Assembly (NCBI GenBank): GCA_009837085.1
Contig: VXUF01000158.1
Coordinates: forward strand, 666-64,665
Origin: Holophagales bacterium
Lineage (GTDB): Bacteria; Acidobacteriota; Thermoanaerobaculia; Multivoradales; Multivoraceae
Direction: 5' to 3'
DNA: 64,000 bases
Shown: one piece after another, positions 9,976-39,849 of the stretch
How positions within the stretch are numbered: the first letter of the stretch is position 1
How the letters are laid out: each line of letters starts with the position of its first letter
Translations under genes and position numbers: made by a program
The notes under the pieces: generated by a model
Seen by the model: only the letters and a program-made list of their open reading frames with translations
Database searches by the model: none
What the model was told of the DNA's origin: nothing

Positions 9976-10965
9976 ATGACCGAACCAGTCGCCGAGAAGA
10001 TCCTCGAGTCCCTCTACCGGGTCGTCGTGCCGCTGCCGCGGAACCCGCTCAAGGAAGTGAACTGCTACGTCTTCGTCGAGGACGACCGCTTCCTCGTCAT
10101 CGACACGGGCATGAACCGTCCCGAGTGCCGCGAGGTTCTGACGGCGGGGCTCGACGAGATCGGCGTCGACCTCGAGAAGACCGATTTCCTGGCGACCCAC
10201 CTCCACGCCGACCACCACGGCCTGATCCCGGAACTTCTGCGACCAGACCGCACTGCATCGATGGGCGCCATCGACGCCGCGGCGATGGGCCGGACCCACG
10301 GCGGCTGGTCCGAGAACAGCCCGATGGGCGTCTACCTCAGGCGCAGCGGTTTCCCGCCCGAGGAGCTGGCCGAGTCGTTCCGGCGCCACCCGGGCGCCCG
10401 CTTCAGCGGCCAGATGATCCAGTACGCGCCGCTGTACGAGGGTGACGTGATCGAGATCGCCGGCTATCGGCTCGAGGTCATCGACACGCCGGGCCACACG
10501 TTCGGGCACATCTCGCTCTACGACCGCGCGAAGCGCCTCTTCATCGCCGGCGATCACATCCTGGGCGACATCACGCCGAACATCCAGGCCTGGGCCGACG
10601 ACCATGATCCGTTGGGCCTCTACCTGGAGAGCGTCGCCAAGGTCGAGGCGCTCGACGTGGACCTCTGCCTGCCCGGCCACCGCAGCCTGATTCACGACTT
10701 CAAGGGCCGCTGCCGGGAACTTCGCGAACACCACCAGGTCCGCGGCCAGGAGGTCCTCGACATCCTGCGCGCGAACGGCAGCCGCAACGCCTACCAGACC
10801 GCCAGCGAAATGACCTGGGACATCCGCGCCAAATCCTGGGACGACTTCCCGATCATGCAGCGCTGGTTCGCGACCGGCGAGGCGATCGCGCACCTGCGCT
10901 GGCTTGAGGACCTGGGAGAGCTACGGCGGGAAGAGGCTGGCGAGCGGATTCTCTACAGCGCCTGA
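9976..10965 (+). CDS. MBL-fold metallo-hydrolase
   Basis: HxHxDH motif HLHADHHG plus later His/Asp ligands (DTPGHTFGH, LPGH). ATG 9976 is preferred over GTG 9943. Confidence 0.8.
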   Translation: MTEPVAEKILESLYRVVVPLPRNPLKEVNCYVFVEDDRFLVIDTGMNRPECREVLTAGLDEIGVDLEKTDFLATHLHADHHGLIPELLRPDRTASMGAIDAAAMGRTHGGWSENSPMGVYLRRSGFPPEELAESFRRHPGARFSGQMIQYAPLYEGDVIEIAGYRLEVIDTPGHTFGHISLYDRAKRLFIAGDHILGDITPNIQAWADDHDPLGLYLESVAKVEALDVDLCLPGHRSLIHDFKGRCRELREHHQVRGQEVLDILRANGSRNAYQTASEMTWDIRAKSWDDFPIMQRWFATGEAIAHLRWLEDLGELRREEAGERILYSA

Positions 10966-10986
10966 AGGCGCTATCGAGTCCAGCAT

Positions 10987-11247
10987 TCACTCCAGCGGCG
11001 CGATCTTCCCCAGGTCTTCCGAGCGCTGTCCGCGCTTCCAGGCTTGCCGCAACTCATCCCGGTGCAGGTCGGCCCACTCCATCACGAGGCCGAGGGCTCG
11101 CGGCGGGAGGCGGCCCTTCAGCACGGTCAGCCTCTCGATGCCGATCAACACAACGGCGCCGCCGTATCGGACGTGGAAGTGGGCCGGAGGCGTGTCTCCA
11201 CACTCCATCTCGACGACGATTCCATAGAAGCGACTGACTTCATGCAT
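10987..11247 (-). CDS. DUF4160-family small protein
   Basis: 86 aa. The pattern FYGIVVEM...PPAHFHVRYG is typical for DUF4160. No DUF2442-type partner gene is adjacent. Confidence 0.7.
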   Translation of the reverse strand: MHEVSRFYGIVVEMECGDTPPAHFHVRYGGAVVLIGIERLTVLKGRLPPRALGLVMEWADLHRDELRQAWKRGQRSEDLGKIAPLE

Positions 11248-11271
11248 CAGAGCGGCGGCTCCTCACTGTTC

Positions 11272-11832
11272 TCAAGGGCGATTCCCAAGCGTACCAATGC
11301 TCTCCGCGCCACCGGCGGCTTCAAGCGCCAGGCCCGCGGTCGTCGTGACCTTCGTGCTTGTCGGGATGTCCTCCGTCACGACGCAGTTCACGCCGATGAA
11401 GACGTCGTCGCCGATCTCGATCTGACCGATCAGGCGACTGCCGGCGCCGACGAAGACGTTGTCGCCGAGGGTCGGCATCTGGTCCAGCCGCCTGCCCGTC
11501 GGGGCGCCGATCGTCACCTGATGCAGCAACGTTCCGTTTCGTCCGATGCGAACGCCGTTGCCGATCACCAGGCCGATGCCGTGGCTGATGAACAGACCAG
11601 GTCCGATGCGCGCCCCCGGCGCGATGTCGACGCTGTTGAGGAACAGCGACAGCCGGGCGACGAAGGGCCCCACAAACGGGATGCGACGGCTCTTGAACCA
11701 GTGGGCGATCCGGTAGAGCACGACGGCCTGGTAGCCGTTCTCGAACAGCAGCGACTCGAGCACGTAGAAGGGGAACGGCTTCGTCTTGATCGCGCGCAGG
11801 CGGCGCGTGTCCTCGCGCAGGTTCTTCAGCAT
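11272..11832 (-). CDS. Serine-acetyltransferase-like hexapeptide-repeat O-acetyltransferase
   Basis: Left-handed beta-helix repeats (IGNGVRIGRNGTLLHQVTIG, VFVGAGSRLIGQIEIGDDVFIGVNCVV) follow a CysE-like N-terminus. ATG 11832 overlaps the GT2 stop (ATGCTGA). Confidence 0.8.
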   Translation of the reverse strand: MLKNLREDTRRLRAIKTKPFPFYVLESLLFENGYQAVVLYRIAHWFKSRRIPFVGPFVARLSLFLNSVDIAPGARIGPGLFISHGIGLVIGNGVRIGRNGTLLHQVTIGAPTGRRLDQMPTLGDNVFVGAGSRLIGQIEIGDDVFIGVNCVVTEDIPTSTKVTTTAGLALEAAGGAESIGTLGNRP

Positions 11833-12761
11833 GCCCGAGCACCCTCGTCGATCCCCGGCGGCGGTTCCATCGGCGCCCGGAGGCCCTCGATCACGCCGCG
11901 GAACTTGGCGATCACGGCGCCCTGGTTGCCGCGGACGAGTTCGCGAAAGAAGGCCAGGAAGAGGCCTGCCGAGAGAAACAGGAGAAACGAGCACCACTGC
12001 GCCGGCCCGCCGTAGCGGCGCACGAACAGCGCGGCGCTGCGGCCGTTGAAGAACGTACGCGAGGCTCGGTAGCCGCCGACGGTCCGCGCCACCATGTGGT
12101 AGAGCACCGCCCGGTGCGCGTAGTAGCAGCGATAGCCGCGCGCCTTCATCCGCATGCACCAGTCGGCGTCGTCCAGCGCGAGGTGGAACAGCGGATCCCA
12201 GAGACCGATCTCCTCGACGACCTGGCGGCGCACCAGCATGGCGCAGCCGTTCACGTAGGGCACTTCCTCGTCGCGGTCGTACTGGCCGCGATCGACCTGG
12301 CCTTCGCCCCGCTCCCGGGTCATCGACTCGCGGAAGCGGATGCGGCCTCCAGCCGACCACAGCCGGTCGCGCTCGCCGTGGTAGAGGATCTTCGGGCCCA
12401 CGCAGCCGATACTCGGGTCGGTCGCGGCCGCCGCGACCAGTTCTTCGACGAAGTCCGGCTCCACCTCGATGTCGTTGTTGAGCAACAGGAGGTAGTCCAC
12501 GCCGCGGTCGACGGCAAGCTCGATCCCCTTGTTCATGCCGTGAACGACGCCCTGGTTCTCCTCGACCCGGATCTGGGTCACGTTCGGGTGAGCGGCCGCG
12601 ACTGCCTCGAACGAGCCGTCGCCGGAACCGTTGTCGATGTGGATCAACTCGCAGGCCGGGTAGGTCATCGCTTCGAGGCTCGCTAACGCCTGCAGCGTGA
12701 TGTCGCGCCCGTTGTAGTTCAGGACGAGGGCTGCAACCGTCGGTACTCGCTCCCCAGGCAC
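11826..12761 (-). CDS. Glycosyltransferase family 2
   Basis: GT-A motifs LVLNYNG, IDNGSGDGS, LLLNNDIEV. GTG 12761 is chosen as start because the upstream part of ORF 11826..13064 has no protein-like character. Confidence 0.85.
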   Translation of the reverse strand: MPGERVPTVAALVLNYNGRDITLQALASLEAMTYPACELIHIDNGSGDGSFEAVAAAHPNVTQIRVEENQGVVHGMNKGIELAVDRGVDYLLLLNNDIEVEPDFVEELVAAAATDPSIGCVGPKILYHGERDRLWSAGGRIRFRESMTRERGEGQVDRGQYDRDEEVPYVNGCAMLVRRQVVEEIGLWDPLFHLALDDADWCMRMKARGYRCYYAHRAVLYHMVARTVGGYRASRTFFNGRSAALFVRRYGGPAQWCSFLLFLSAGLFLAFFRELVRGNQGAVIAKFRGVIEGLRAPMEPPPGIDEGARAC

Positions 12762-12803
12762 GCGGGTCAGCGTAACGCAGAGCCGACGGGTAACATCCGC
12801 GCC

Positions 12804-14354
12804 ATGCGCCGAAGTCGACGCCGGCCTTCCGGCCGGCGCGTTTTCCCAGCCGCCTGCGGCGGCAGCCGGCGGGGACGCCGGCGCACCCAGTATGCGGCCG
12901 GTGACACGCACCGCCTCATTCTCGCCGGCACGCTCGCCCTGCTGGCTGGCGCTGTGCCCGCGGCCGGACAAAGCGACGCCGAACCGCCGTCCGCTGCCAC
13001 ATGGCCGGGCTTCCGCGGACCAGACGGCATTCCCGTTTCGGACAACGACCGGCTGCCGCTCCACTGGTCCACGACCGAGAACGTCGAATGGAGCGTCGAC
13101 GTGCCCGGTTCCGGCTGGTCGTCACCGATCGTCGTCGGCGACACCGTCTTCCTGACCACCGCGGCCAGATCGACCGCAGCGACCAAGCGGCCGGAGTTCG
13201 GCACCGAGTACAGCAACGAGTTCATGCGCGAGCTGCGGGAACAGGGGCTTCCCTGGGAGGAGGTCCTCAAGCGCCACGACGAACGCTTCATCGAGTTTCC
13301 CGACGAAGTCGATCTCGACTACCAGTTGATCGCGTACTCGCTTGAGGACGGCGCCGAACTCTGGCGGCGCACCTTCTTCGCCGGACCGCCACCCGGGGGC
13401 CGCCACTCGAAGAACACCTTCGCCTCCGAGACGCCGGTCACCGACGGCGAGACCATCTTCGTCTAGGTCACCGGGCTCGGCCTGTGGGCCTTCTCGCTCG
13501 AGGGCGAACTGCGCTGGGAGCGACTGCTCGATCCGTTCCAGATCTACATGGACTTCGGGACCGGTGGTTCGCCCGCCCTCACGGACGACCTCGTCGTCAT
13601 CCTGAACGACAACCAGGAGCACCCCTTCCTCGCCGCCTTCTCCAAGCAGGACGGCCGCGAGTTCTGGCGCGCTGCCCGGGGGCGGCTCGCCGCCCCGCAC
13701 GCCCCCAACCACCGAACCTCCTGGAGCACACACTTCGTCTGGCGTCACGACGAGCGCACCGAGATCGTCGCTCTCGGCCCCTACACCGCGATCAGCTACG
13801 ACACGATGGGCCGGGAGCTGTGGCGACTCACCAGGCACTCGCTGCTGCCGGTGCCGACGCCCTTCGCGTACGACGGCCTGCTCTACGTGACGTCGGGCGT
13901 TCACGGAGACCAGAACCGCCCGATCACGGCGATCCGCCCCGGCGCCGCCGGCGATCTCACCCTGGCTGAGGACCAGACGAGCAACGAGTACGTGGTCTGG
14001 AACGACAACCGCGCCGGCACCTACATCCCGACGCCGATTCCCTACAAAGGCTCCCTGTGGGTGGTCTACGACCGCGGCATCTTCGCCCGCTACGACGCGG
14101 CCACCGGGGAACGGCTGTATCGGGCGCGGATCGAGGACTCGAACGGCCACTTCACGACCTCGCCCTGGGCCTACCGGGACCGCATCTTCGCCACCGACGA
14201 GGCCGGCACGACGTTCGTGTTCGGAACCGGCGACGAGTTCGAGCAGCTCCACGCGAATCCGCTGGACGAGATGACCCTCGCTTCTCCGGCGCTTGCCGGC
14301 GACCGGCTGGTGATGCGGACCCGGTCGAAGCTGTACAGCTTCCGGGAGAGGTGA
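12804..14354 (+). pseudogene. PQQ-like (BamB-like) beta-propeller repeat protein interrupted by an in-frame TAG at 13464..13466
   Basis: ORFs 12804..13466 and 13548..14354 share one frame. Translation continues sensibly through the stop (...TDGETIFV*VTGLGLWAFSLEGELRWERLL...). The N-terminal motif WPGFRGPDG...WSSPIVVGDTVFLTTA is typical of this propeller family. The start codon is also doubtful (see findings). Confidence 0.6.
12848..12894. repeat. REP-like double-hairpin element, dispersed copy of the core repeated at 50829..50875 and 50912..50958
   Basis: agccgcctgcggcggCAgccggcggggacgccggcgcacccagtAtg matches the recD-downstream core at 44 of 47 positions. It contains the hairpins gccgcc-tgc-ggcggc and gccggcg-ggga-cgccggc. 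Confidence 0.65.
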
Positions 14355-27579: not shown

Positions 27580-27627
27580 CGGACGGCCCGGGATATGGTG
27601 CAGATGGAATCCGTTCACGGGGTTGCC

Positions 27628-29076
27628 ATGCGATATCGCCACCTGCAAGCGCTGGCCCTCCTTCCACTTGCAGCGCTCGCCCTGGCCTGCAGCGCCGATC
27701 CTGAGTCGGCGCTCGAGCCGGCGGCCGAGGCACCGCGGCGCGTCTTCCTGATCACGGTCGACACGCTGCGCGCCGATCACCTGGGCTGGCATGGCTATCC
27801 CCGGGACACGAGTCCGCGGCTCGACGAATGGGTCGAGCGCGGTGTCGTCTTCGAGAGGGCGATCGTCCAGTGGCCGAAGACCGGACCGTCCTTCGCCTCG
27901 ATGTTCACGAGCCTCTACCCGCACACGACCGGACTGATCAACACGGCCGCGCAGACGATCCCCGACGACTACCTCGCGCTGCCGGCATGGTTCCAGGAAC
28001 GCGGCTTCACGACGGCGGCGGTGATCTCCAACCCGGTGCTGAGCCGGGAACTTGGCTGGGGCCGCGGCTTCGACCGCTACGAGCAGACCTGGGTCGACCA
28101 GGCGACGCTCGACGCCGTCGACGAACTCCCGATCGAGCAGCGGCCGATGGCGTTCCGGCGTCACGTGTGGGCCGACCGCGTGAACGAACTCGCCCTGCCC
28201 CTGCTGGCCTCCCTGGTATCCGAGGAGCGGCTCTTCGTCTGGCTGCACTACACCGACCCGCACGTCCCCTACCTGCTCCAGCCCGGCACCGGGAATCCGT
28301 TTCTGGACGATGAGCACTATGTCGGCGACGAAATCGTCGACCTGACGGGTGCCGAGGGACGCGCGCTCGGCGACCACCGGGAACTCCGCTACTACGTGGC
28401 CCAGTACGACGCGAATGTGTGGGTCACGGATCGCGCGATCGGCGCCATCCTGGACGAGATTGCCGCCCTCGGCATGGAGGACGGGAGCCTGTTCGTGGTG
28501 ACCGCCGACCACGGCGAGGAACTGAACGAGCACGGAGTGCCTTTCGAGCACGGTCCGGTGCCCTACAACAGCAGCGTCCACGTGCCGCTGGTCGTCGTCG
28601 GCGAACCCTGGGTCGACAGAGGCGCACGCGTCGAGCAGCCGGTCGAGTTGATCGGCCTCTTCCCCACCCTGGTCGAGCTACTGGGCGAACCGATGCCCGA
28701 GGGCTTCGAGGGCCGGAGCTGGACGCCTCTGCTGCGGGAACAGCCCGAGACCGACGAAGCCGGTACCGGCGCCGTCGCGGATCCAATCGCTTTCGCCGAT
28801 GCCGGGGCCTACCAGCGTCACCTGCGGAGCATCCAGGACGGCGAGTGGCAACTCGTCCTGCGTCCGCCGAACCGGGACCATGAGAAGCCGACGATCGAGC
28901 TCTACCACCTGCCGTCCGACCCGCTGCAACTCAAGGACGTGGCCTCCGAGTTTCCGGATGTCATGGACCGGCTCGGTCGACGCCTGAGCAGATGGATCCG
29001 CGATTCGCCGCAGAACGTGGCCCCACACACCGAGGCCGCGCGCAAGGCGCTCGAGGCGATGGGCTACCTGGAGTGA
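27628..29076 (+). CDS. Sulfatase-fold (alkaline phosphatase superfamily) lipoprotein lacking the formylglycine motif
   Basis: MRYRHLQALALLPLAALALACS lipoprotein signal. Metal site ITVDTLRADHLG and TADHGEEL. The nucleophile segment reads KTGPSFASMFTSLYP where sulfatases have C/SxPxRxxxLTG. Confidence 0.8.
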   Translation: MRYRHLQALALLPLAALALACSADPESALEPAAEAPRRVFLITVDTLRADHLGWHGYPRDTSPRLDEWVERGVVFERAIVQWPKTGPSFASMFTSLYPHTTGLINTAAQTIPDDYLALPAWFQERGFTTAAVISNPVLSRELGWGRGFDRYEQTWVDQATLDAVDELPIEQRPMAFRRHVWADRVNELALPLLASLVSEERLFVWLHYTDPHVPYLLQPGTGNPFLDDEHYVGDEIVDLTGAEGRALGDHRELRYYVAQYDANVWVTDRAIGAILDEIAALGMEDGSLFVVTADHGEELNEHGVPFEHGPVPYNSSVHVPLVVVGEPWVDRGARVEQPVELIGLFPTLVELLGEPMPEGFEGRSWTPLLREQPETDEAGTGAVADPIAFADAGAYQRHLRSIQDGEWQLVLRPPNRDHEKPTIELYHLPSDPLQLKDVASEFPDVMDRLGRRLSRWIRDSPQNVAPHTEAARKALEAMGYLE

Positions 29077-29999: not shown

Positions 30000-30401
30000 A
30001 TGCGCTACGTGTCCTTCATCCACCGGGACGGCGCCGGTTACGGCGTGAGCTTTCCCGACTTTCCCGGCTGCGTCTCCGTCGGCGACACAGTCGACGAGGC
30101 CGTGCGGCACGGTTGCGAAGCCCTCGCCTTTCACGTCGAGGGTCTCGTAGCGGACGGCGCCCGGATTCCGCCCCCAAGGTCGATCGACGCGATCAAGGCC
30201 GACGCGGAACTCGCCGACTGGCGTCAGGGGGCGGACTTCGTTCTGATTCCACTCTTGCTGGACCGCGGATCTTCGCGGCGGGTCAACATTTCGCTTGACC
30301 GCGGTCTGCTCGAGGCGATCGACGACGAAGCCAGGGAGCGCCGGATGACCCGGTCGGCGTTCTTGGCCAGCGCGGCACGCCACGAGATCGAGGGGACGTG
30401 A
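30000..30401 (+). CDS. hicB: HicB-family antitoxin with C-terminal ribbon-helix-helix domain (no HicA partner seen)
   Basis: MRYVSFIHRDGAGYGVSFPDFPGCVSVGDTVDEA is the HicB N-domain pattern. The C-terminus VNISLDRGLLEAIDDEARERRMTRSAFL is CopG/RHH-like. SD AGGAGG lies upstream. Confidence 0.8.
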   Translation: MRYVSFIHRDGAGYGVSFPDFPGCVSVGDTVDEAVRHGCEALAFHVEGLVADGARIPPPRSIDAIKADAELADWRQGADFVLIPLLLDRGSSRRVNISLDRGLLEAIDDEARERRMTRSAFLASAARHEIEGT

Positions 30402-30432: not shown

Positions 30433-31881
30433 GTGACGGGCGCCGCCGAGCCCGAGGCGAAGCAGCGGCTGCTGCACTCGTCGGTCAGCGCCTACGGCTC
30501 GATGCTGCTGCGCCTGCTGCTCGCGTTCGCCGCACGCGCCATCCTGGCCCGGCTGATTCTCCCGGACGTTCACGGACTCTTCGACCTCGCGCTGCAATTC
30601 GTGGTGATGGCCTCCGCCATCCGCGACCTCGGCCTGACCCACCACCTCATGCGCGATCCGCGCGAGTCCTACGGCACAGTGCTCGCCTGGAGCCTGAGTG
30701 TAGGCGCCGCCATGTCCCTGGCCCTGGTCGCATTCGCCGGCGTCTTCTCCTACCTCAATCCGGACCTGCCGAATGTCCTGCGCGGTCTGGCCGTGTGGAT
30801 CGTCATCGATGCCGCGATCATGGTCTACCGGACCTTCTTCGAACGGCGGCTCCGAATCCGCGAAATCGCCGGCTTCGAAATCCTGCGCAGCCTCGTGTAC
30901 GGCCTGATCGCGGTCGGCCTGGCCCACCTCGGCGCCGGAGTCTGGTCTTTCGTGGGCGGCGAGTTGCTGGCATCGGCACTCTTCGCCGTTCTGCTGCTGT
31001 GGCGAGCGCGAGGCCGGGTCAAGCTAGACGTCGACTGGCAGCGACTCCGAGGCCTGCTCCGCGCCAGCCGCTACCTGTTCGTCGTCTGGGCCGCGGCCCA
31101 GGTCTTCAACCGCATCGACATCTACATCATCGAGATCTTCTCGACCACCACCTTCGTCGGCTACTACGGTCAGGCCTACTACTTCGCCTTCCTGGTCGCC
31201 CTGACCGTGACCCCAAGGCCGCTGTTGCCAGCCCTGGTCGAGTTCCGCGAGAAGGCTGCAGAGTTCGCGGAGACCCTGCGGCTCGGCACGCTGGTCTTCC
31301 TCGCCGGAATCGTCGTCTCGGCCTACTTCCTGTTCTTCAACGCCGAGAAGGCAGTCCAGGTGGTTCTCGGGCCCGGGTGGGACGACACGGTGCCGCTACT
31401 TCGCGTTCTCTGTCTGGTACCCCTGGTCGATGTCTTCACGACAACGGGCGGCGAAGCGCTGAAGGTGCAGAACCGGGACCGCCTGTGGGTGACCACGGTA
31501 GTGCTGAACATGCTGGCTCTCATCGGCTTCGGCTTCCTCTTCACCTACCTCTGGGGCCCCATTGGCATGGCCTGGGCGAACTTCCTGCGCATCGGCAGTT
31601 TGTTGATGTTCCTCAAGGTGCTCGGCATCTTCGCGGGCCGACGACGCCGGCTGGTCGCCAGTCTTGCCCAGGTCTACCTGCTGCCTCTGCCGTTCTTCAT
31701 TGCCGTCGCGGTCTTGCTGCCGACAGGCAGTTGGGCCCGGCTGATCGCCAGCATCGCGGCGGCGGCACTCGCCGGCGGCCTCCTGACGCTTCGCTTCCTC
31801 CCCGATTACCGGCGGTTCTTCCGCACCGCCACGACCGGCGCCGAGACAGCGGGCGACGCGGACATCGGGACGACCTCGTGA
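30433..31881 (+). CDS. Polysaccharide biosynthesis protein / oligosaccharide flippase (Wzx, MOP superfamily)
   Basis: 482 aa, hydrophobic helices throughout, Wzx-like N-terminal pattern ([26 protein letters not shown]), located in a glycan gene block. Confidence 0.75.
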
Positions 31882-33431
31882 CGGATCGCCGAACGCTCAG
31901 ACTCCTCGGCGCCTCGGCGGCAGCCCTGCCGCTGCTAACCCTCCTGTTCCTCCCGATCCGCACGATCGACGACGCCTTCATCACCTTCCGCTACGCCCGC
32001 CACCTTGCCGACGGCAACGGCCTGGTCTTCAACCTCGGCGAGCGCGTGGAAGGGGTGACCAGCCTGTCGTGGACCCTGCTGCTGGCGTTCGTCGAAACGC
32101 TGCGTCTGCCGGTCGAGCCCGCGGCGTTCGTTCTCGGCGTGTCGTTCGCCCTGTTGGCATTGCGCGAGGCCTACCTGCTGGGTCGCGGCCTCGGCGCCTC
32201 ACCGGCGGCCTGTCTGGCCGCGGTCGCGCTGGTGGCGGTCCATGGCCGCTTCTGGCTGGTTGCCGGCAACGGCCTGGAGGGCGGCCTGTTCGCCTTTCTG
32301 GTCGTCCTCGTCGCGCGTAAGACCATCGAGGAAGCGGACACGCGGCTGATCGGCGTCCTTCTGGGGCTGCTCTTCATGACCCGGCCGGAGAGCCTGGTCG
32401 TCCTGCCGATCGTCGCCGGCTATCAGTTGCTGGGAACGTCCGAATCCGCCGAGAGGACGGAAGCGCGTACCCGAGCCGTCACCCTTTCGGTTGCGGCTCT
32501 CGCGGTCGTCGGGGCCGTCACGATCTGGCGGCTCGGCTACTACGGCGCCCTCCTGCCCAACTCGGTGGCCGCCAAGTCCGCCGTCTCGGCCGGAACCGAG
32601 ACGCTGCTGGCGAATCTGGTGTCGGGCCTGTCCTATACCGTCCGCTTCGAGATCGCTCACGCGCCCCTGATCCTCGGCGCCGCAATCGCACTGGTCCGAA
32701 GGCCCGCGAACCGGGCCCTGTGGTTCTGCCTGCTCGTGGTGGTGTCCGAGTTGCCGGCCGTCCTCGTCAACGGCGGCGACTGGATGCCTCACTACCGGCT
32801 GTTGACCGTGTTCGCACCGGTGCTGGCGGCTCCGCTGGCCCTCTGCCTCTCAAGTGCGTTCGGGGACTGGGACATGCCGGGCCCCGCCAGACGGCGCTCA
32901 GCCTGGGTGCTCGCCGTGCTGTCCGTGAGCGCCGTCTTCATGCTCAGCCGCAGTCCCTGGCAGACCACACCCGGCCCGCGCTTCACCTTCCATCCGATCA
33001 CGAGCTGCTACCAGTTCATGGCGACCCGCCTGAAGCCCCACCTTGCGCCCGGCGACGTCGCCGCCGCCGAAGCGATCGGGCTCTTCGGCTGGATCCTCGA
33101 CGAAACGACGATCCACGATCCTCTCGGCCTGACCTCCACTCATCACGCTCGCCACGGCGAGTACCACCTGAACTGGGGTAAAACCGACTACAACCATCTC
33201 CACCAGGTCCGCCCCGCGGTCCTCGTGCTCCACGAGGGCTCGGTGGTGACCCCCGGGAAGATCGACCGCGGCACCGACGGCCGCTTCGCCCGCGACTACT
33301 CCGCCTGGTTCGTCAGCCAGCAGCCGCCCTGCGCGCCGTACCGGCTCATCGTGTACATCGACAACGAGCGACTGGAGCGCCTTCGCCCGGCACTCGCCGG
33401 CCTCGCCATCGAGCCCCTGCCGACCAGCTAG
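31878..33431 (+). CDS. Large polytopic membrane protein, possibly a GT-C-type glycosyltransferase/polymerase
   Basis: GTG 31878 overlaps the flippase stop (GTGA). Early loop motif [26 protein letters not shown] is followed by many hydrophobic segments. 517 aa. Family not firmly recognised. Confidence 0.45.
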
Positions 33432-34701: not shown

Positions 34702-36687
34702 GTGATCGGCCCCGCAGGAGTTCTCAAGGAACGTTCGAAGACAGCACCGGCCCGGAACCTCAATCAGACGATCGAGGCCGCGGCGCGCAACCTCCTGAGC
34801 AGTCGCAAGGAGGATGGTCACTGGCGCTTTGAGCTCGAGGGCGACACGATCCTCGAATCGGAGTACGTTCTGCTGCTCTACTTCCTCGGCCGCGCAGGCG
34901 ATCCGAGAGTCACCGCCTGCTGCCGGCGCCTGCGGAGCCAGCAGATGCCGACAGGCGGCTGGGCGACCTATCCGGGCGGACGGGTCGATCCAAGCGTGTC
35001 CGTCAAGGCCTATCTGTGCCTGAAGCTCGCCGGCGACGACCCGCGTTCGCCGCACATGGCCGCGGCACGCCGCGCGATCCTCGGCGCCGGAGGGCTGCGT
35101 GCTTGCAACTCGTACACGAAGTTGTACCTGGCAATCTTCGGCCTGTGGCGCTGGCGACAGGCGCCGGCGGTGCCCCCGGAGATGATCCTCCTGCCGCGGT
35201 GGTTCTGCTTCAACATCTACGACATGTCTTCGTGGACGCGGGCGATGGTCGTTCCGCTGTCGGTGATCTGGGCCCACCGGCCGAGCGTGCCGCTCGGCGT
35301 CACGCTCGATGAACTCGAAACGGAGTTCGTCCCGACTCGTGCTCGTCGACCGCTGATCGAGCTTCTCTGGGCACAGGCGTTCAGCGCGCTCAGCGCACTG
35401 TTCAAGCTGGTCGACTGGATCGGTCCTCTTCCCTGGTGGCGGCGCCGTGCCCTGGTGAAGGCCGAAAGATGGCTGACAGAGCGCATCGAGTGCGCGGACG
35501 GCCTGGGCGCGATCTTCGGGGCAATGGTGAACGCCGTCATCGCTTTGCGGTGCCTGGGATACGACCTGAACCACCCCCTGGTTCAGGCTCAACTGCGCGA
35601 ACTCGAACGGTTCGAGATCGAGGAGGCCGGGGAGACCCGCCTCCAGCCTTGTCTGTCGCCGGTCTGGGATACGACCCTGACGGTGAACGCGTTGCTCGAT
35701 GCCGGCGTGGATGACGGGAAAGCCCCGATTCAGGAAGCTCTGGAGTGGCTGCTGGACCGGGAGATCTCGGTTGCGGGCGATTGGCGCCAAAGGAGTCTCC
35801 AGGAGGCGCCCGGCGGCTGGTGCTTCGAGTACCGGAACGACCACTACCCCGACTGCGACGACACGGCGGAGGCACTGCTGGCGCTGGCCCGGGTCCGGGG
35901 GCGTTTCGCGCTGGAAGGGCGACGGCAAGAGGCACTGGCCCGGGGACTGGCCTGGCTTCTGGGCATGCAGAACCCGGACGGCGGCTGGGCCGCCTTCGAC
36001 CGGGGATGTGACAAGGAAGTCCTCACCTTCATTCCCTTCGCCGATCACAACGCGATGATCGATCCGAGCACGCCGGACATCACCTCTCGAAGCATCCGTG
36101 CCCTGCTTGCCGCGGGACTCGGTCCGCGGGAGGCGCCGGTCAGGCGGGCCGCCGGGTACCTGCTGCGACAGCAGGAGGAGGACGGAAGCTGGCCCGGACG
36201 CTGGGGGGCCAATCACATCTACGGGACCGGGCTTTCGCTGCGGGCTCTAGGTGAGCTCGCCTCCCCGGCGGCACGCGACCGCTCCGACGCCCTGGCGCGG
36301 GCGTTGAAGCGTGGCCGGAGTTGGCTCGTCCGGGTCCAGAACGGAGACGGCGGGTGGGGCGAGTCGCTCCGTTCCTACGAGCATCCGACCGCCAGGGGGC
36401 GCGGGGACAGCACCGCATCCCAGACGGCCTGGGCGATGCTGGGGCTGAGCGCGGCCGTCCGAGCGCGGCCGGAACCACGCGAATCCGGTGTGGCTCGCGC
36501 GGCGCTCGACCGTGCCGCCGCCTTCCTTCAGGAGCGTCAGCGGGAGGACGGTTCCTGGTACGACCACTGGTGGACCGGGGTCGGTTTTCCGGGAGTCTTC
36601 TATCTCCGATACCACGGCTACGCCCAGTACTTTCCGCTCGCGGCGCTTGCTGCGTATCGCCGGCTTCGATCAGGGAGCCGGCGATGA
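34702..36687 (+). CDS. shc: Squalene-hopene cyclase
   Basis: Catalytic DxDD motif HYPDCDDTAEA. Repeated QW motifs (QNPDGGWAAF, QEEDGSWPGRWG, QNGDGGWGES, QREDGSWYDHWW). 661 aa. Confidence 0.92.
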   Translation: MIGPAGVLKERSKTAPARNLNQTIEAAARNLLSSRKEDGHWRFELEGDTILESEYVLLLYFLGRAGDPRVTACCRRLRSQQMPTGGWATYPGGRVDPSVSVKAYLCLKLAGDDPRSPHMAAARRAILGAGGLRACNSYTKLYLAIFGLWRWRQAPAVPPEMILLPRWFCFNIYDMSSWTRAMVVPLSVIWAHRPSVPLGVTLDELETEFVPTRARRPLIELLWAQAFSALSALFKLVDWIGPLPWWRRRALVKAERWLTERIECADGLGAIFGAMVNAVIALRCLGYDLNHPLVQAQLRELERFEIEEAGETRLQPCLSPVWDTTLTVNALLDAGVDDGKAPIQEALEWLLDREISVAGDWRQRSLQEAPGGWCFEYRNDHYPDCDDTAEALLALARVRGRFALEGRRQEALARGLAWLLGMQNPDGGWAAFDRGCDKEVLTFIPFADHNAMIDPSTPDITSRSIRALLAAGLGPREAPVRRAAGYLLRQQEEDGSWPGRWGANHIYGTGLSLRALGELASPAARDRSDALARALKRGRSWLVRVQNGDGGWGESLRSYEHPTARGRGDSTASQTAWAMLGLSAAVRARPEPRESGVARAALDRAAAFLQERQREDGSWYDHWWTGVGFPGVFYLRYHGYAQYFPLAALAAYRRLRSGSRR

Positions 36688-38693
36688 CCGTCAGGTTCGC
36701 CGAGGAGATTCTCCTGCTCATCCTCGACGAAGAGCACGGTGATCTGCCGGAGTCCTACTCGGAGCATCTTCTGGACATCGTCGTCGCCGGCGCCGTGTTG
36801 ATGGATCTGGCGCTGGAGGGACGGATCGACACGGACCTCGAGAAACTCGTCCTGGTGGACTCGACGCCTCTTGAGGACGAGCTTCTCGATCCGACCCTGG
36901 CGGATGTAGCGACCGGCCCGGGCGATCGCAACGCGGACTACTGGATCGCGCGCACCGCGGAGCGGGGCAAGGAGATCCGTGAACGTGCGCTTGCCCGCCT
37001 GGTCGAGAACGGAATCCTGGAAACCGATGCCGGCGGCATGTTCTTTTCGTCCGCCGTCTCCCGTTCCAGGCGCTATCCGACCCGTGACGGGCGCCAGATG
37101 GAGGAAGTGCGCCTGCGAATCATGCGGGTGCTGTTCAGCGACGAGATACCCGATCCGCGCGATGTCGTGCTCATCTGCCTGAGCGACGCCAGCGGCGTAC
37201 TGCGTCGCCTGCTCACGCCGCAGGAGAGGACCCGGCTGCGGGAACGGATCGAGCAGATCCGGAAGCTCGACCTGATCGGCCGGTTCCTGCTCCCGGCGAT
37301 TCGCCAGAACCAGCTCGCCGCCCCGGCGCCGACGGCAGCCCGGCAGCCGAGCGAGATTCCCGAAGTGAAGGGCCTCCCGTTCCTCGGCAGCGCCCTCAGC
37401 ATGACCGGAGATCTGAGCGTCTTCTTCGCCCGGCAGTATAGGGAACTGGGCCCCGTCTTTCGCGTGCGCGCCCTGAACCGGCGCCTCCTCGTTCTCGCCG
37501 GTCCGGAAGCCGTTCAGTTTCTCCAACGCCAGGGCAAGGCCCACTTGCGAACCGGCAACGAGTGGTTGCGCTTCAGTTGGGAGATGGGGGCCTCCAAGAC
37601 GATCATCGCCCAGGAGGGCCCTCCACATGTCCGCATGCGCAAGACGATGGCCCCGGGCCTTTCGCCCCAGTGCCTCCACGAGCGCATGCCCGACTTCATG
37701 CGCATCACCCGAACGGAGATCGCCGGCTGGCTCCACGGCGGTCCCGTTGCGGCCCGCTCCGCGCTTCAGCGCATGATCACTCGCCAAGCCGGCGCACTGC
37801 TGGCCAACCTCGACATGGTCGACGGCTCCGACGACCTGGACCGCCTTCTAGGGACGATCCTGGACGTGGAGGTGGCGCGACGACGTCCAAGGTGGTGGCT
37901 GAAGCTCCCGCGGGTGTCTCGCGCTCGAAAGTCCTATCGGGCGCTCTTCGAGGAGATCATGGCAGTGCACGAGCGACGCAAACCGTCTGGCGGCCCATCG
38001 AACGTCGTGGACGATCTGCTCGATCTTCATCGAAGAGACCCTCGGCTGCTCCCCGAAGAGGACCTGCCGGGCGTCGTCGGATCCATCCTCATCGCGGCGC
38101 TCCACACGGCAGCGTACACGGTGGTGTTCGCGCTCTACGAGGCGCTGAAACGCCCGCGGTTCCTGAACGCGATGAGGGCCGAAGCGGACGCCCTGTTCGA
38201 CAGCGGAGCCGCAGCCGCGCCTCCACTGTCACGACTTGACGTCACGAACCGCTTCGCGATGGAGACCATGCGGGTGTACTCGATCACGCCCGCGGTGCTG
38301 CGTCGCGTAACGAACTCGTTCGTGTTTGCCGGCCACACGATTCCGGCCGGCGCAGACATCGTGATCGCCTACGGAGCAGCGCACCATCTGCCGGAGCACT
38401 TCCCCGATCCGCAGCGTTTCGACATCGACCGGTACACGCCGGAGCGGGCGGAGCATCGGGCAGCCGGTGTGTACGTTCCGTTCAGCGCGGGAGCGCACAG
38501 TTGCCTGGGAAAGGGCCTCGCCCAGATTCAGATCGCACTGACCCTTGCGACGATCTTCCATGAGGCCGACCTGGAGATGAGGCCCCCGGGCTACAGGCTG
38601 AAGGTCTCCTACGGTCTGTCGCCCAGGCCGGCCGATTCCTTCAGGTTCGTCGCGCGGCGCAGAAGAGAAAGAGACGCCTCCCTCACCGCCTGA
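36684..38693 (+). CDS. Fusion protein: N-terminal GPP34/GOLPH3-family domain + C-terminal cytochrome P450
   Basis: ATG 36684 overlaps the shc stop (ATGA). The N-terminus EEILLLILDEEHGDL...VVAGAVLMDLALEGRIDTD is GPP34-like. P450 motifs are ExxR (ETMR) and heme loop FSAGAHSCLGKGLA. Confidence 0.8.
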   Translation: MTVRFAEEILLLILDEEHGDLPESYSEHLLDIVVAGAVLMDLALEGRIDTDLEKLVLVDSTPLEDELLDPTLADVATGPGDRNADYWIARTAERGKEIRERALARLVENGILETDAGGMFFSSAVSRSRRYPTRDGRQMEEVRLRIMRVLFSDEIPDPRDVVLICLSDASGVLRRLLTPQERTRLRERIEQIRKLDLIGRFLLPAIRQNQLAAPAPTAARQPSEIPEVKGLPFLGSALSMTGDLSVFFARQYRELGPVFRVRALNRRLLVLAGPEAVQFLQRQGKAHLRTGNEWLRFSWEMGASKTIIAQEGPPHVRMRKTMAPGLSPQCLHERMPDFMRITRTEIAGWLHGGPVAARSALQRMITRQAGALLANLDMVDGSDDLDRLLGTILDVEVARRRPRWWLKLPRVSRARKSYRALFEEIMAVHERRKPSGGPSNVVDDLLDLHRRDPRLLPEEDLPGVVGSILIAALHTAAYTVVFALYEALKRPRFLNAMRAEADALFDSGAAAAPPLSRLDVTNRFAMETMRVYSITPAVLRRVTNSFVFAGHTIPAGADIVIAYGAAHHLPEHFPDPQRFDIDRYTPERAEHRAAGVYVPFSAGAHSCLGKGLAQIQIALTLATIFHEADLEMRPPGYRLKVSYGLSPRPADSFRFVARRRRERDASLTA

Positions 38694-38706
38694 GGAGGAG
38701 ACTCCA

Positions 38707-39849
38707 GTGCCCGGCAAAGACAAGGTCCTCCCGCACTCGAGCACGATGGCCCCTCCGGGCACATGGCTGCGCCTCCTCTGGGAGAACGGCGGCGCCCCGC
38801 CGGCCTACTGGGGCAAGGTGGCGCGGATCCTCATTCCGACGACGCTGGCTGCTCCTCTACGGATCTTCGAACGACTGCGCTGGGGCGGGGCCGTCGCCCG
38901 CGTGGAGATCGACAAACCGCCCGTCTTCGTGCTCGGCGTTGCCCGCAGCGGCACGACCCATCTGCTCAATCTGATGTCGCAGGATCCCCAGTACGCCTGG
39001 ATCTCGACCTTCCACGCCGCCGTGCCGACCTTCTTCCTCACCGGCCGTGGCCGGTTGAAGCGCCTCATGGCCGGACTCGCGCCGGCGACCCGGCCGATGG
39101 ACAACATGAAGGTGTCCATGGACATGCCGGTGGAGGAGGATCTGGCAGTCGCCAATGCGAGTCCTTTCTCTTCCCTCCATGCGCTCTCGTTCCCCCAGCG
39201 GGGAGAGTGGTACTTCAACAGGTACTGCTTCATGCGAGGCCTTTCGGCCAGGGATATGAAGCAGTGGGAGCGCGTCTACATGGAGGTGCTGCGCAAGGCG
39301 ACGCTGGATGCCGGCGGCCGGCGGCTGGTGCTCAAGAGTCCGGCCAACACCGGCCGGATACCTCATCTGTTGCGGCTCTTCCCGGACGCGCGGTTCATCC
39401 ACATCGTTCGCAATCCGTACGTGGTCTACGAATCCCTGGTGCACATGTTCCGTTCGGTCATACCGATGCACCAGCTTCAGTCGATCACCGAGGATGCTCT
39501 GCACGATCTCGCTCTCTTCCTCCTGCGGGAGACTCTGCGGCAGTACCTTGAGGACCGATCGTCCATCCCGAAGGGACAGCTTGTGGAGCTGCGTTTCGAA
39601 GATCTGGAGCGGAATCCGCTGTCGGAGCTCGAGGCCGTCTACGCAACGCTGGACCTGCCGGGCTGGGAGGCGGCGCGGGTCGGGATCGAGAGCTACCTGG
39701 GTGGAATTGCCGGCTATCAAAAGAACCGGCACGCAATCGATCCGTGCACGGTCGAACGCGTTCAGCGAGAGTGCCGCTTCGCACTGGACACATGGGAGTA
39801 CCTGCCGCCCGACGGTCCGTCGGCCGCGGTGTCCTGGGCGTCACGGTGA
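38707..39849 (+). CDS. PAPS-dependent sulfotransferase family protein
   Basis: GTG 38707 lies 6 nt after GAGGAGGAG. 5'-PSB loop VLGVARSGTTHLLNL and 3'-PB-like FIHIVRNPYVVYES. 380 aa. Confidence 0.8.
   Translation: MPGKDKVLPHSSTMAPPGTWLRLLWENGGAPPAYWGKVARILIPTTLAAPLRIFERLRWGGAVARVEIDKPPVFVLGVARSGTTHLLNLMSQDPQYAWISTFHAAVPTFFLTGRGRLKRLMAGLAPATRPMDNMKVSMDMPVEEDLAVANASPFSSLHALSFPQRGEWYFNRYCFMRGLSARDMKQWERVYMEVLRKATLDAGGRRLVLKSPANTGRIPHLLRLFPDARFIHIVRNPYVVYESLVHMFRSVIPMHQLQSITEDALHDLALFLLRETLRQYLEDRSSIPKGQLVELRFEDLERNPLSELEAVYATLDLPGWEAARVGIESYLGGIAGYQKNRHAIDPCTVERVQRECRFALDTWEYLPPDGPSAAVSWASR

Follow-up and report, generated by a model that had tools for sequence, protein, structure and literature searches.

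A GPP34-P450 fusion gene in a three-gene operon

We describe here a gene encoding a two-domain protein, in which a GPP34/GOLPH3-family domain is joined to a cytochrome P450, located in a 64,000-nucleotide stretch of the genome of a Holophagales bacterium (Acidobacteriota; assembly GCA_009837085.1, contig VXUF01000158.1, positions 666 to 64,665 of the forward strand) that is referred to at its full length as the window. The gene is a single uninterrupted open reading frame (ORF) of 669 codons with no internal stop, and is the middle member of a three-gene operon that starts with a squalene-hopene cyclase gene and ends with a sulfotransferase gene (Table 1). An earlier reading of these letters, made without database searches (the sequence-only reading), had proposed the fusion, and both domains are recovered by profile searches of the 669-residue protein: the N-terminal segment matches Pfam PF05719 (GPP34) with an E-value of 1.3e-38 and 133.5 bits (cutoff 29.1), and the remainder matches PF00067 (p450) with an E-value of 2.1e-48. 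The P450 is complete, as that reading stated, but it begins at residue 229, about 30 residues ahead of the start near residue 260 that had been placed by eye.

Table 1. Features of the fusion gene and its operon, with coordinates in the window unless another locus is named
Feature	Coordinates	Strand	Basis
GPP34-P450 fusion gene	36684..38693	+	Intact ORF, both Pfam domains, AlphaFold2 model, 120 top homologues alike
GPP34/GOLPH3-fold domain, residues 6-205, acidic, PI4P pocket not conserved	36699..37298	+	PF05719, Foldseek, residue mapping, charge
Interdomain linker, residues 206-228, short, partly helical (H203-212)	37299..37367	+	DSSP of model
Cytochrome P450 domain, residues 229-634, basic	37368..38585	+	PF00067, PDB sequence search, Foldseek, charge
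I-helix His474-Thr475, replacing the usual acid-Thr pair	38103..38108	+	CYP51 alignment, family columns, model kink
ExxR motif E527-T-M-R530, K helix	38262..38273	+	E527 and R530 invariant in 121 sequences
Heme-binding loop F600-S-A-G-A-H-S-C607-L-G609, proximal Cys	38481..38510	+	Family conservation
Squalene-hopene cyclase, 661 aa, first operon gene	34702..36687	+	Pfam, TIGR01507, DxDD
PAPS-type sulfotransferase, 380 aa, third operon gene	38707..39849	+	Pfam Sulfotransfer_3, E 2.8e-36
Cyclase genes with internal deletions	L008 8621-9974; L009 9354-9995

The two domains are separated by a short linker that ends with a conserved EIP and runs into the proline-rich N-terminal motif of the P450, which starts at EIPEVKGLPFLG. 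In an alignment of 121 family members, to which all residue-column counts below refer, conservation around the linker extends to D196-L-I-G199 and to I225/P226. The full-length AlphaFold2 model has a pLDDT of 89.1 and a pTM of 0.73. The search for the same architecture that the sequence-only reading proposed shows that GPP34 and P450 domains are both present in all 120 of the best database homologues, nearly all of which are 655 to 685 residues long, and relatives are encoded by at least 563 stretches of GTDB species-representative genomes.

That reading had also named, as a finding that would refute it, the merging of two genes by a frameshift or a misassembly, and both GPP34 and related P450 genes are known elsewhere in stand-alone form (PMC11706023). 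However, the frame is continuous, the architecture is shared across the family, the linker is conserved, and contigs assembled from four independent sponge-metagenome runs span the gene without gaps or indels. An artefact is thus ruled out, with practically no probability left to it, and the fusion is genuine.

The fusion gene is 98-99% identical to genes in Holophagales/Acidobacteriota metagenome-assembled genomes (MAGs) of the Ircinia-type 'SB06xx' and 'COS' series (99% to SB0670_bin_39), and the window region is almost completely contained in runs labelled 'sponge metagenome' (word share up to 0.99). In these metagenomes the most conserved segments of the GPP34 and P450 domains (36936-37377 and 38262-38482, respectively) show a several-fold higher contig depth together with many short partial matches, indicating that fusion genes, paralogous or orthologous, are present in many of the co-resident symbionts.

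Proteins of this kind have been catalogued before. Ferreira et al. (Microbiome 2025; PMC11706023) named the combination of GPP34 and P450 'GPP34_L', reported 656 such proteins from many sponge-symbiont phyla, found them in symbionts only (of sponges, and of coral), and noted split forms, in which a GPP34_S gene adjoins a P450 gene, besides the fused ones. The fusion protein described here shares the identical domain architecture and the sponge habitat and is a member of GPP34_L; its architecture is therefore not new. These 656 fusions also correct the view of the sequence-only reading that bacterial GPP34 proteins stand alone, whereas its statement that they are functionally uncharacterised holds. 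A literature search for GPP34 together with P450 found nothing beyond this one paper, which covers distribution and phylogeny, and in which PI4P-binding residues, secretion signals and the flanks of the fused form were not analysed. What is added here is the linkage to cyclase, sulfotransferase, acyltransferase and kinase genes, the loss of phosphatidylinositol 4-phosphate (PI4P)-contact residues, the charge asymmetry between the domains, and a subclade with a His-Thr pair in the P450 I-helix.

Variant architectures were also seen among relatives. Three family members (P0031, P0085 and P0121; 872-945 residues, with P0085 at 945) are tandem GPP34-GPP34-P450 proteins, and these together with P0161 and P0238 include a double-GPP34 protein and a stand-alone related P450 with cyclic-nucleotide-binding domains; P0238 is the P450 relative that carries the cNMP-binding domains.

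The genes flanking the fusion within the operon

The gene upstream of the fusion matches the Pfam SQHop_cyclase_N and SQHop_cyclase_C profiles (E 1e-107 and 1e-112), scores 610 bits against the NCBIfam hopene_cyclase equivalog TIGR01507 (cutoff 431), and only 218 against the oxidosqualene-cyclase model, far under the cutoff of 851. It contains the DxDD motif in the form DCDDTAE, and by its sequence is a genuine squalene-hopene cyclase. The cyclase stop codon overlaps the fusion start codon in an ATGA at 36684-36687, which agrees with the proposal of the sequence-only reading that the fusion gene lies behind a triterpene cyclase in an operon.

That reading missed the third gene, a sulfotransferase of the type dependent on 3'-phosphoadenosine-5'-phosphosulfate (PAPS), which starts 13 bp past the fusion stop codon and has its own ribosome-binding site, GGAGGAG. 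Its best match among solved structures is 2Z6V (E 6e-11), with a weaker match to 2ZQ5, both of which we take to be mycobacterial Stf-type enzymes. The G+C content at third codon positions is 0.80-0.82 in the three operon genes and 0.85-0.90 in the flanking genes. Comparison with L008, the corresponding locus in one of the two closest reference MAGs, shows a mosaic pattern, with 85% identity in the 5' part of the cyclase gene, 96.6% across the fusion and sulfotransferase genes, and 80% downstream. Together these provide a hint that the block from 34702 to 39849 was recombined or transferred.

Scans of the operon found no promoter-like sites, and terminator-like sites at chance level, and no run clearly labelled as RNA was found that contains the operon region and could speak to co-transcription. 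The Methyltransf_24 gene upstream and the TonB receptor gene downstream were considered as cluster members and rejected, as they are syntenic in the closest relatives only.

The PI4P pocket of GOLPH3 is not conserved in the GPP34 domain

Modelled in isolation, the GPP34 domain has a pLDDT of 86 and a pTM of 0.86, and a Foldseek search of the PDB returns E-values of 0.001 or better only for GOLPH3 and Vps74 chains, with TM-scores between 0.60 and 0.74 (0.74 for GOLPH3 9qpq_B, 0.69 for GOLPH3 3kn1, and 0.62-0.67 for Vps74). A profile of the N-terminal domain matches GOLPH3 3KN1 with an E-value of 1.7e-8. With both a profile match and a fold match, membership in the GPP34 family and fold is secure. 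The likeness to GOLPH3/Vps74 (3KN1, 9QPQ, 2ZIH) comprises the Pfam family, the fold (TM-score 0.62-0.74), and a helix followed by a beta-hairpin. The differences are an identity of only about 19-22%, a change in the ligand pocket, an acidic character, the covalent joining to an enzyme, and an organism without a Golgi.

Only one of the four residues with which human GOLPH3 contacts PI4P is kept, and pairwise and profile alignments give a single register for all four. The position of W81 is S26 here and Pro, Ala or Ser in the family; that of R90 is A35 (Ala in 117 of 121); that of R171 is K96 (Asp or Glu in 90 of 121); and R174 alone is retained as R99 (Arg in 116 of 121). The domain is also strongly acidic, with a net charge of -11 and a pI of 4.8 (family mean -14), whereas the P450 domain has a net charge of +17 and a pI of 10.3 (family mean +7.6). 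No transmembrane or signal-like segment is present in the fusion protein, the sole strongly hydrophobic window being the buried I-helix.

The loss of PI4P residues and the acidity of the domain make a GOLPH3-type phosphoinositide tether unlikely, and the GPP34 domain is presumably not a PI4P anchor. The sequence-only reading had proposed that the domain tethers the P450 to the membrane or to its lipid substrate; a GOLPH3-style phosphoinositide or membrane tether is thus unlikely, while an adaptor role is plausible. Eukaryotic P450s carry an N-terminal membrane anchor, and the GPP34 domain occupies the position of that anchor, immediately before the proline-rich entry motif of the P450. Given this anchor-like position, the short conserved linker, the existence of both split and fused forms, and the opposite charges of the two domains, the GPP34 domain is most likely a built-in acidic adaptor that acts as a physical partner of the P450. 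Its role could be substrate gating, positioning at the membrane surface, or recruitment of a partner.

The P450 domain and its His-Thr I-helix

The predicted catalytic core of the P450 is intact. In the heme loop (FSAGAHSCLG) C607 and G603, and P599 just before it, are invariant, and H605 is conserved in 120 of 121 sequences. The PxRF element is present as PQRFDIDR, with R578 nearly invariant and F579 invariant. The placement of the I-helix by eye at IAALHTAAYT proved correct: the segment liaalHTaayt aligns without a gap to the Methylococcus CYP51 segment ifaghHTssgt, and the AlphaFold2 model places it in a long helix spanning residues 458-489 that kinks at 474/475.

At position 474 the 121 sequences have Asp 79 times, Glu 19 times and His 22 times, such that His accounts for about 18% of the family, while position 475 is Thr in 120 and Ser in one. 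The His474 variants fall into at least two separate clades in a neighbour-joining tree. With His-Thr in only 22 sequences it was rejected as a family-wide trait, and the pair is best classed as a clade-specific variant. His-Thr in the I-helix is a hallmark of CYP51. The pair is thus a variant already on record and does not stand for some unknown oxygen chemistry, which qualifies the hint of atypical oxygen activation that the sequence-only reading saw in it. In CYP51 the I-helix His forms a salt bridge with a helix-F acid in a proton relay (PMC7908997). The corresponding position here is D394, although within the His clade, in a region where the alignment is weak, this position is Thr in ten, Asp in four and Ala in four of 22 sequences; a CYP51-like His-Asp relay thus appears not to be conserved in that clade.

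The relationship to CYP51 needs some care. The best sequence matches among solved structures are CYP51 enzymes (6MCW, 7JJ1 and 7SNM; E about 4e-34, 121 bits), the His-Thr pair is at the same position, the target-normalised TM-score is as high as 0.85, and the gene adjoins a triterpene cyclase gene. The best structures found by Foldseek are CYP184A1, the Methylococcus CYP51-ferredoxin protein and CYP120A1, with target-normalised TM-scores of 0.78-0.86 and identities of 21-25%. Many unnamed stand-alone bacterial P450s of 440-470 residues are closer, with 32-42% identity and 230-355 bits. Membership of a CYP family needs more than 40% identity under P450 nomenclature, and the domain reaches no NCBIfam equivalog. 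The B'/C-loop pattern of CYP51, PxFG..V.FD, is absent, with gnewlrfswemgasktiiaqeg opposite gpayrimtpifgrgvvfdar. A true CYP51, or a bacterial sterol pathway, was rejected because the identity to CYP51 is only 21-25%, the substrate-recognition signature is missing, and the adjacent cyclase is of the squalene-hopene (DxDD) and not the oxidosqualene type; we therefore do not classify the domain as a CYP51. The Methylococcus capsulatus CYP51-ferredoxin differs also in its fusion partner, a C-terminal ferredoxin rather than an N-terminal GPP34 domain. The nearest characterised relatives of the P450 act on sterols, retinoids, terpenes or fatty acids.

Gene neighbourhoods across the family

Gene neighbours were recorded at 81 non-redundant loci in more than ten phyla, with the surveyed taxa being Acidobacteriota, Gemmatimonadota, Latescibacterota, Binatia, Spirochaetia, Alpha- and Gammaproteobacteria, Bacteroidota, Chloroflexota and Actinomycetota. 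In 61 of the 81 the fusion gene has a gene for an O-conjugating enzyme no more than 2.5 kb away, mostly within 150 bp. The most widely conserved partner is the sulfotransferase (30 loci, in which it is 44-72% identical to that in the window), followed by a membrane O-acyltransferase of the Acyl_transf_3 family (22 loci) and a kinase of the ecdysteroid-kinase-like (EcKL)/APH type (10 loci). In nine of the ten kinase loci a major facilitator superfamily (MFS) pump gene follows within 5 kb, and pumps of the resistance-nodulation-division (RND) or ATP-binding cassette (ABC) type are frequent near the fusion genes. All three types of partner enzyme derivatise hydroxyls, and the simplest interpretation is that the P450 makes a hydroxyl on a lipophilic substrate.

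The residue at position 474 can be set against the gene context. Among 15 fusion genes with His474, 12 have an adjacent sulfotransferase gene and seven a squalene-hopene cyclase gene within 10 kb. The corresponding numbers are 11 and two for the 50 genes with Asp474, and seven and none for the 18 with Glu474. The His-Thr variants are thus the ones most closely associated with sulfation and cyclase genes. Within the His-Thr clade of Acidobacteriota the cyclase is linked with the fusion and the sulfotransferase through several gene orders: cyclase-fusion-sulfotransferase in the window and in L013, fusion-cyclase-sulfotransferase in L012, and fusion-sulfotransferase-cyclase followed by outer-membrane efflux protein, membrane fusion protein and RND genes in L005 and L007. 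Locus L004 has a duplicated set, with a fusion itself fused to a sulfotransferase, then a cyclase, a second fusion, a sulfotransferase and an RND gene.

The first of the L004 fusion genes (10001-13177; P0035) encodes in one frame an apparent GPP34-P450-sulfotransferase triple fusion of 1058 residues, adjoining a split cyclase and the second fusion-sulfotransferase pair. This is weak evidence, because the long-read contig has 1x coverage and frameshift artefacts are possible. No more P450-sulfotransferase fusions were found among the longer relatives.

The kinase loci (L018, L020, L029, L041, L050, L053, L058, L059, L063 and L067) belong to several phyla, and in them the ecdysteroid-kinase-like/APH phosphotransferase gene follows the fusion gene as an alternative to the sulfotransferase, the pump usually being TRI12-like. 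The acyltransferase follows fusion genes with the I-helix sequence VGLDTT, mainly in Gemmatimonadota (among the 22 loci are L001, L024, L027 and L033-L049); an ABC transporter of about 784 residues is sometimes encoded upstream, and in L001 a 275-residue ORF without a Pfam match lies between the two genes. In L043 (Arenicellales) there are two tandem fusion genes and a distant cyclase-like gene with 26% identity.

A candidate pathway to sulfated hopanoids

We favour the reading, to which we give slightly less than an even chance, that the products of the three-gene operon oxidise and sulfate a cyclase-made hopanoid by way of a cytoplasmic, membrane-peripheral two-domain monooxygenase in which the GPP34 domain is an adaptor and not a PI4P anchor. 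The cyclase would convert squalene to a C30 hopanoid (hopene or diplopterol), to which the P450 domain, drawing electrons from an unlinked ferredoxin system, would add a hydroxyl. The PAPS-dependent sulfotransferase would then esterify this hydroxyl, giving an anionic sulfated triterpenoid that in the sister loci is probably exported by the adjacent RND-type pumps. The acidic GPP34 adaptor most likely docks either on the basic P450 or on some partner at the surface of the membrane, which would let it control access to the lipid substrate. The domain identities, the intact catalytic motifs, the operon layout, the linkage to conjugating enzymes and the loss of PI4P residues are observed, whereas we infer the nature of the substrate, the order of hydroxylation and sulfation, and the role of the GPP34 domain.

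Two known systems bear comparison. The canonical hopanoid pathway (Shc and Hpn proteins) shares with the window a genuine squalene-hopene cyclase, and RND pump genes adjoin the cluster in sister loci; these pumps recall HpnN-type lipid export. It differs in that no hpnH, hpnG or other side-chain genes adjoin the cluster. Neither P450 oxidation nor O-sulfation is known as a modification of hopanoids, and a full-text literature search found no paper with the phrase 'sulfated hopanoid' or 'hopanoid sulfate'. The other, the closest precedent for the proposed logic, is the cyp128-stf3 operon of Mycobacterium tuberculosis, whose products are believed first to hydroxylate an isoprenoid membrane lipid and then to sulfate it in making the sulfomenaquinone S881 (PMC6469627). 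There, as in the window, a P450 gene adjoins a sulfotransferase gene; however, the P450 is of another family, there is no GPP34 domain and no cyclase, the lipid is a menaquinone and not a triterpenoid, and the CYP128 step was never shown biochemically.

Several observations weigh against the production of a sulfated hopanoid by this operon. About 70 of the 81 loci have no cyclase gene nearby, showing that the family as a whole is not hopanoid-specific. In the two closest reference MAGs the cyclase gene has internal deletions (of 342 and 257 bp for L008, of 293 and 1036 bp for L009), and shortened cyclases (P0297, 480 residues; P0317, 387 residues) are also encoded on long-read contigs of 0.25-3 Mb. 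The P450 and the sulfotransferase remain 95-99% identical in L008 and L009 despite these deletions, and thus the pair does not strictly need an adjacent cyclase. A six-frame motif scan of the 64-kb window found no ferredoxin or reductase, in agreement with the sequence-only reading, and no consistently adjacent redox partner was found in 85 related loci, the hits being spurious frames and one Rieske-type oxygenase, encoded directly downstream of the fusion gene in L055 (Vicinamibacterales; about 12336-12404). The window also has no efflux pump homologue. Replacement of the I-helix acid by His may lead to chemistry other than simple hydroxylation, and the pTM of only 0.73 for the full-length model bears on the geometry between the domains.

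The window and L013 have an intact cyclase, and it seems that the cluster cyclase is decaying in some strains while the P450 and sulfotransferase are kept. The contigs of all four sponge-metagenome runs break within about 28 bp of one another (35601-35628), inside the cyclase gene; this common break point suggests that the assembly graphs branch there at strain level, in keeping with deletion variants. A 4,969,223 bp ENA contig (ctg21647c; L005) carries genes for two cyclase homologues, one within the fusion cluster (P0309) and one elsewhere (P0307, 763 residues), showing that at least some genomes have a second squalene-hopene cyclase.

Alternative explanations

The strongest alternative keeps the same logic of oxidation, conjugation and export but places its substrates among the lipophiles of the host or the community, for example sponge sterols, terpenoids or natural products that are toxic, in a bacterial equivalent of phase I-III detoxification or modification, with the cyclase link being clade-specific. 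It accounts well for the many loci with a conjugating enzyme, and often a pump, but without a cyclase, and for the conservation of the P450 and sulfotransferase in L008 and L009 while the cyclase decays. The occurrence of the family in sponge (and coral) symbionts of many phyla fits a shared host chemistry (PMC11706023), the window sequence itself is present in sponge metagenomes, and sterol-binding CYP51 is among the structural neighbours of the P450. We nonetheless regard it as unlikely, if a serious contender, because the cyclase stays linked through gene-order rearrangements in the His-Thr Acidobacteriota clade, the window cyclase is translationally coupled to the fusion gene, an uptake system is not consistently linked, and a second cyclase present in some genomes (P0307 and P0309 on one contig) could supply substrate. 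A different chemistry for the His-Thr subclade, in which a CYP51-like multi-step oxidase removes a hopanoid methyl by C-C cleavage to give nor-hopanoids, would suit the exact alignment of the His-Thr hallmark, the CYP51 enzymes as best PDB sequence matches, and the enrichment of His-Thr beside cyclases. This we consider very improbable, because the identity to CYP51 is low, its B'/C-loop signature is not visible, its helix-F acid (PMC7908997) appears not to be kept across the His clade, the scores of stand-alone bacterial P450s are far higher, and a sulfotransferase, which needs a hydroxyl that persists, adjoins 12 of the 15 His-Thr genes.

The only published proposal casts the GPP34 proteins of sponge symbionts as secreted effectors, which would bind PI4P of the host and keep phagosomes from maturing (PMC11706023), with the P450 contributing in some manner. 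The strong enrichment of the family in symbionts over free-living relatives and the eukaryote-like ancestry of the fold (PMC11706023) speak for it, as does the GOLPH3 fold of the N-terminal domain seen here. It is a poor fit with the sequence of this member, however, and at least for the fused form a secreted PI4P effector is most improbable: three of the four PI4P-contact residues are replaced, that at the R90 position by an almost invariant Ala, the domain has a strongly acidic character, and the N-terminus lies within the conserved domain and has no signal-peptide-like segment. A P450 that depends on heme and ferredoxin would hardly be expected to work once secreted, the operons are shared with cytoplasmic lipid-modifying enzymes and pumps, and neither binding residues nor secretion signals were tested in the original proposal (PMC11706023).

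Implications

Among gene families associated with symbiosis in sponge microbiomes, the fusion is one of the most widespread, and the neighbourhood pattern offers cytoplasmic lipid hydroxylation, conjugation with sulfate, acyl or phosphate groups, and export as an alternative to the effector proposal. More generally, it is possible, though on balance doubtful, that GPP34 is a dedicated partner of symbiont-wide lipid-oxidising P450s in cassettes that oxidise, then sulfate, acylate or phosphorylate, and then export a lipid, and that in sponge Acidobacteriota this logic has been wired to squalene-hopene cyclase to give sulfated hopanoids. Such hopanoids could serve the holobiont as secreted signals or for defence. 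Sulfated terpenoids have long been isolated from dictyoceratid sponges, and the predicted sulfated hopanoids might be related to these. If the favoured reading is true, it would define a new lipid class of bacteria, either membrane-bound or secreted, give bacterial GPP34 domains a first biochemical role, as P450 partners, and provide candidate genes for the origin of the sponge sulfated terpenoids; if it is wrong, the protein is an ordinary member of a catalogued family. A review of 2017 predicted, from their chemistry, that the sulfated merotriterpenoids of sponges derive from a bacterial SHC-like cyclase together with an oxygenase and a sulfotransferase (PMC5618424), which we treat as a lead and not as evidence.

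Other features upstream of the operon

Several other genes lie upstream of the operon in the window. A long ORF without a Pfam match (about 31900-33431, within 30795-33431) is located between a Wzx-like flippase gene and the Methyltransf_24 gene. Further upstream are a gene for a HicB-like antitoxin (30000-30401), with no obvious HicA called, and one for a sulfatase of a type typical of sponge symbionts (27595-29076).

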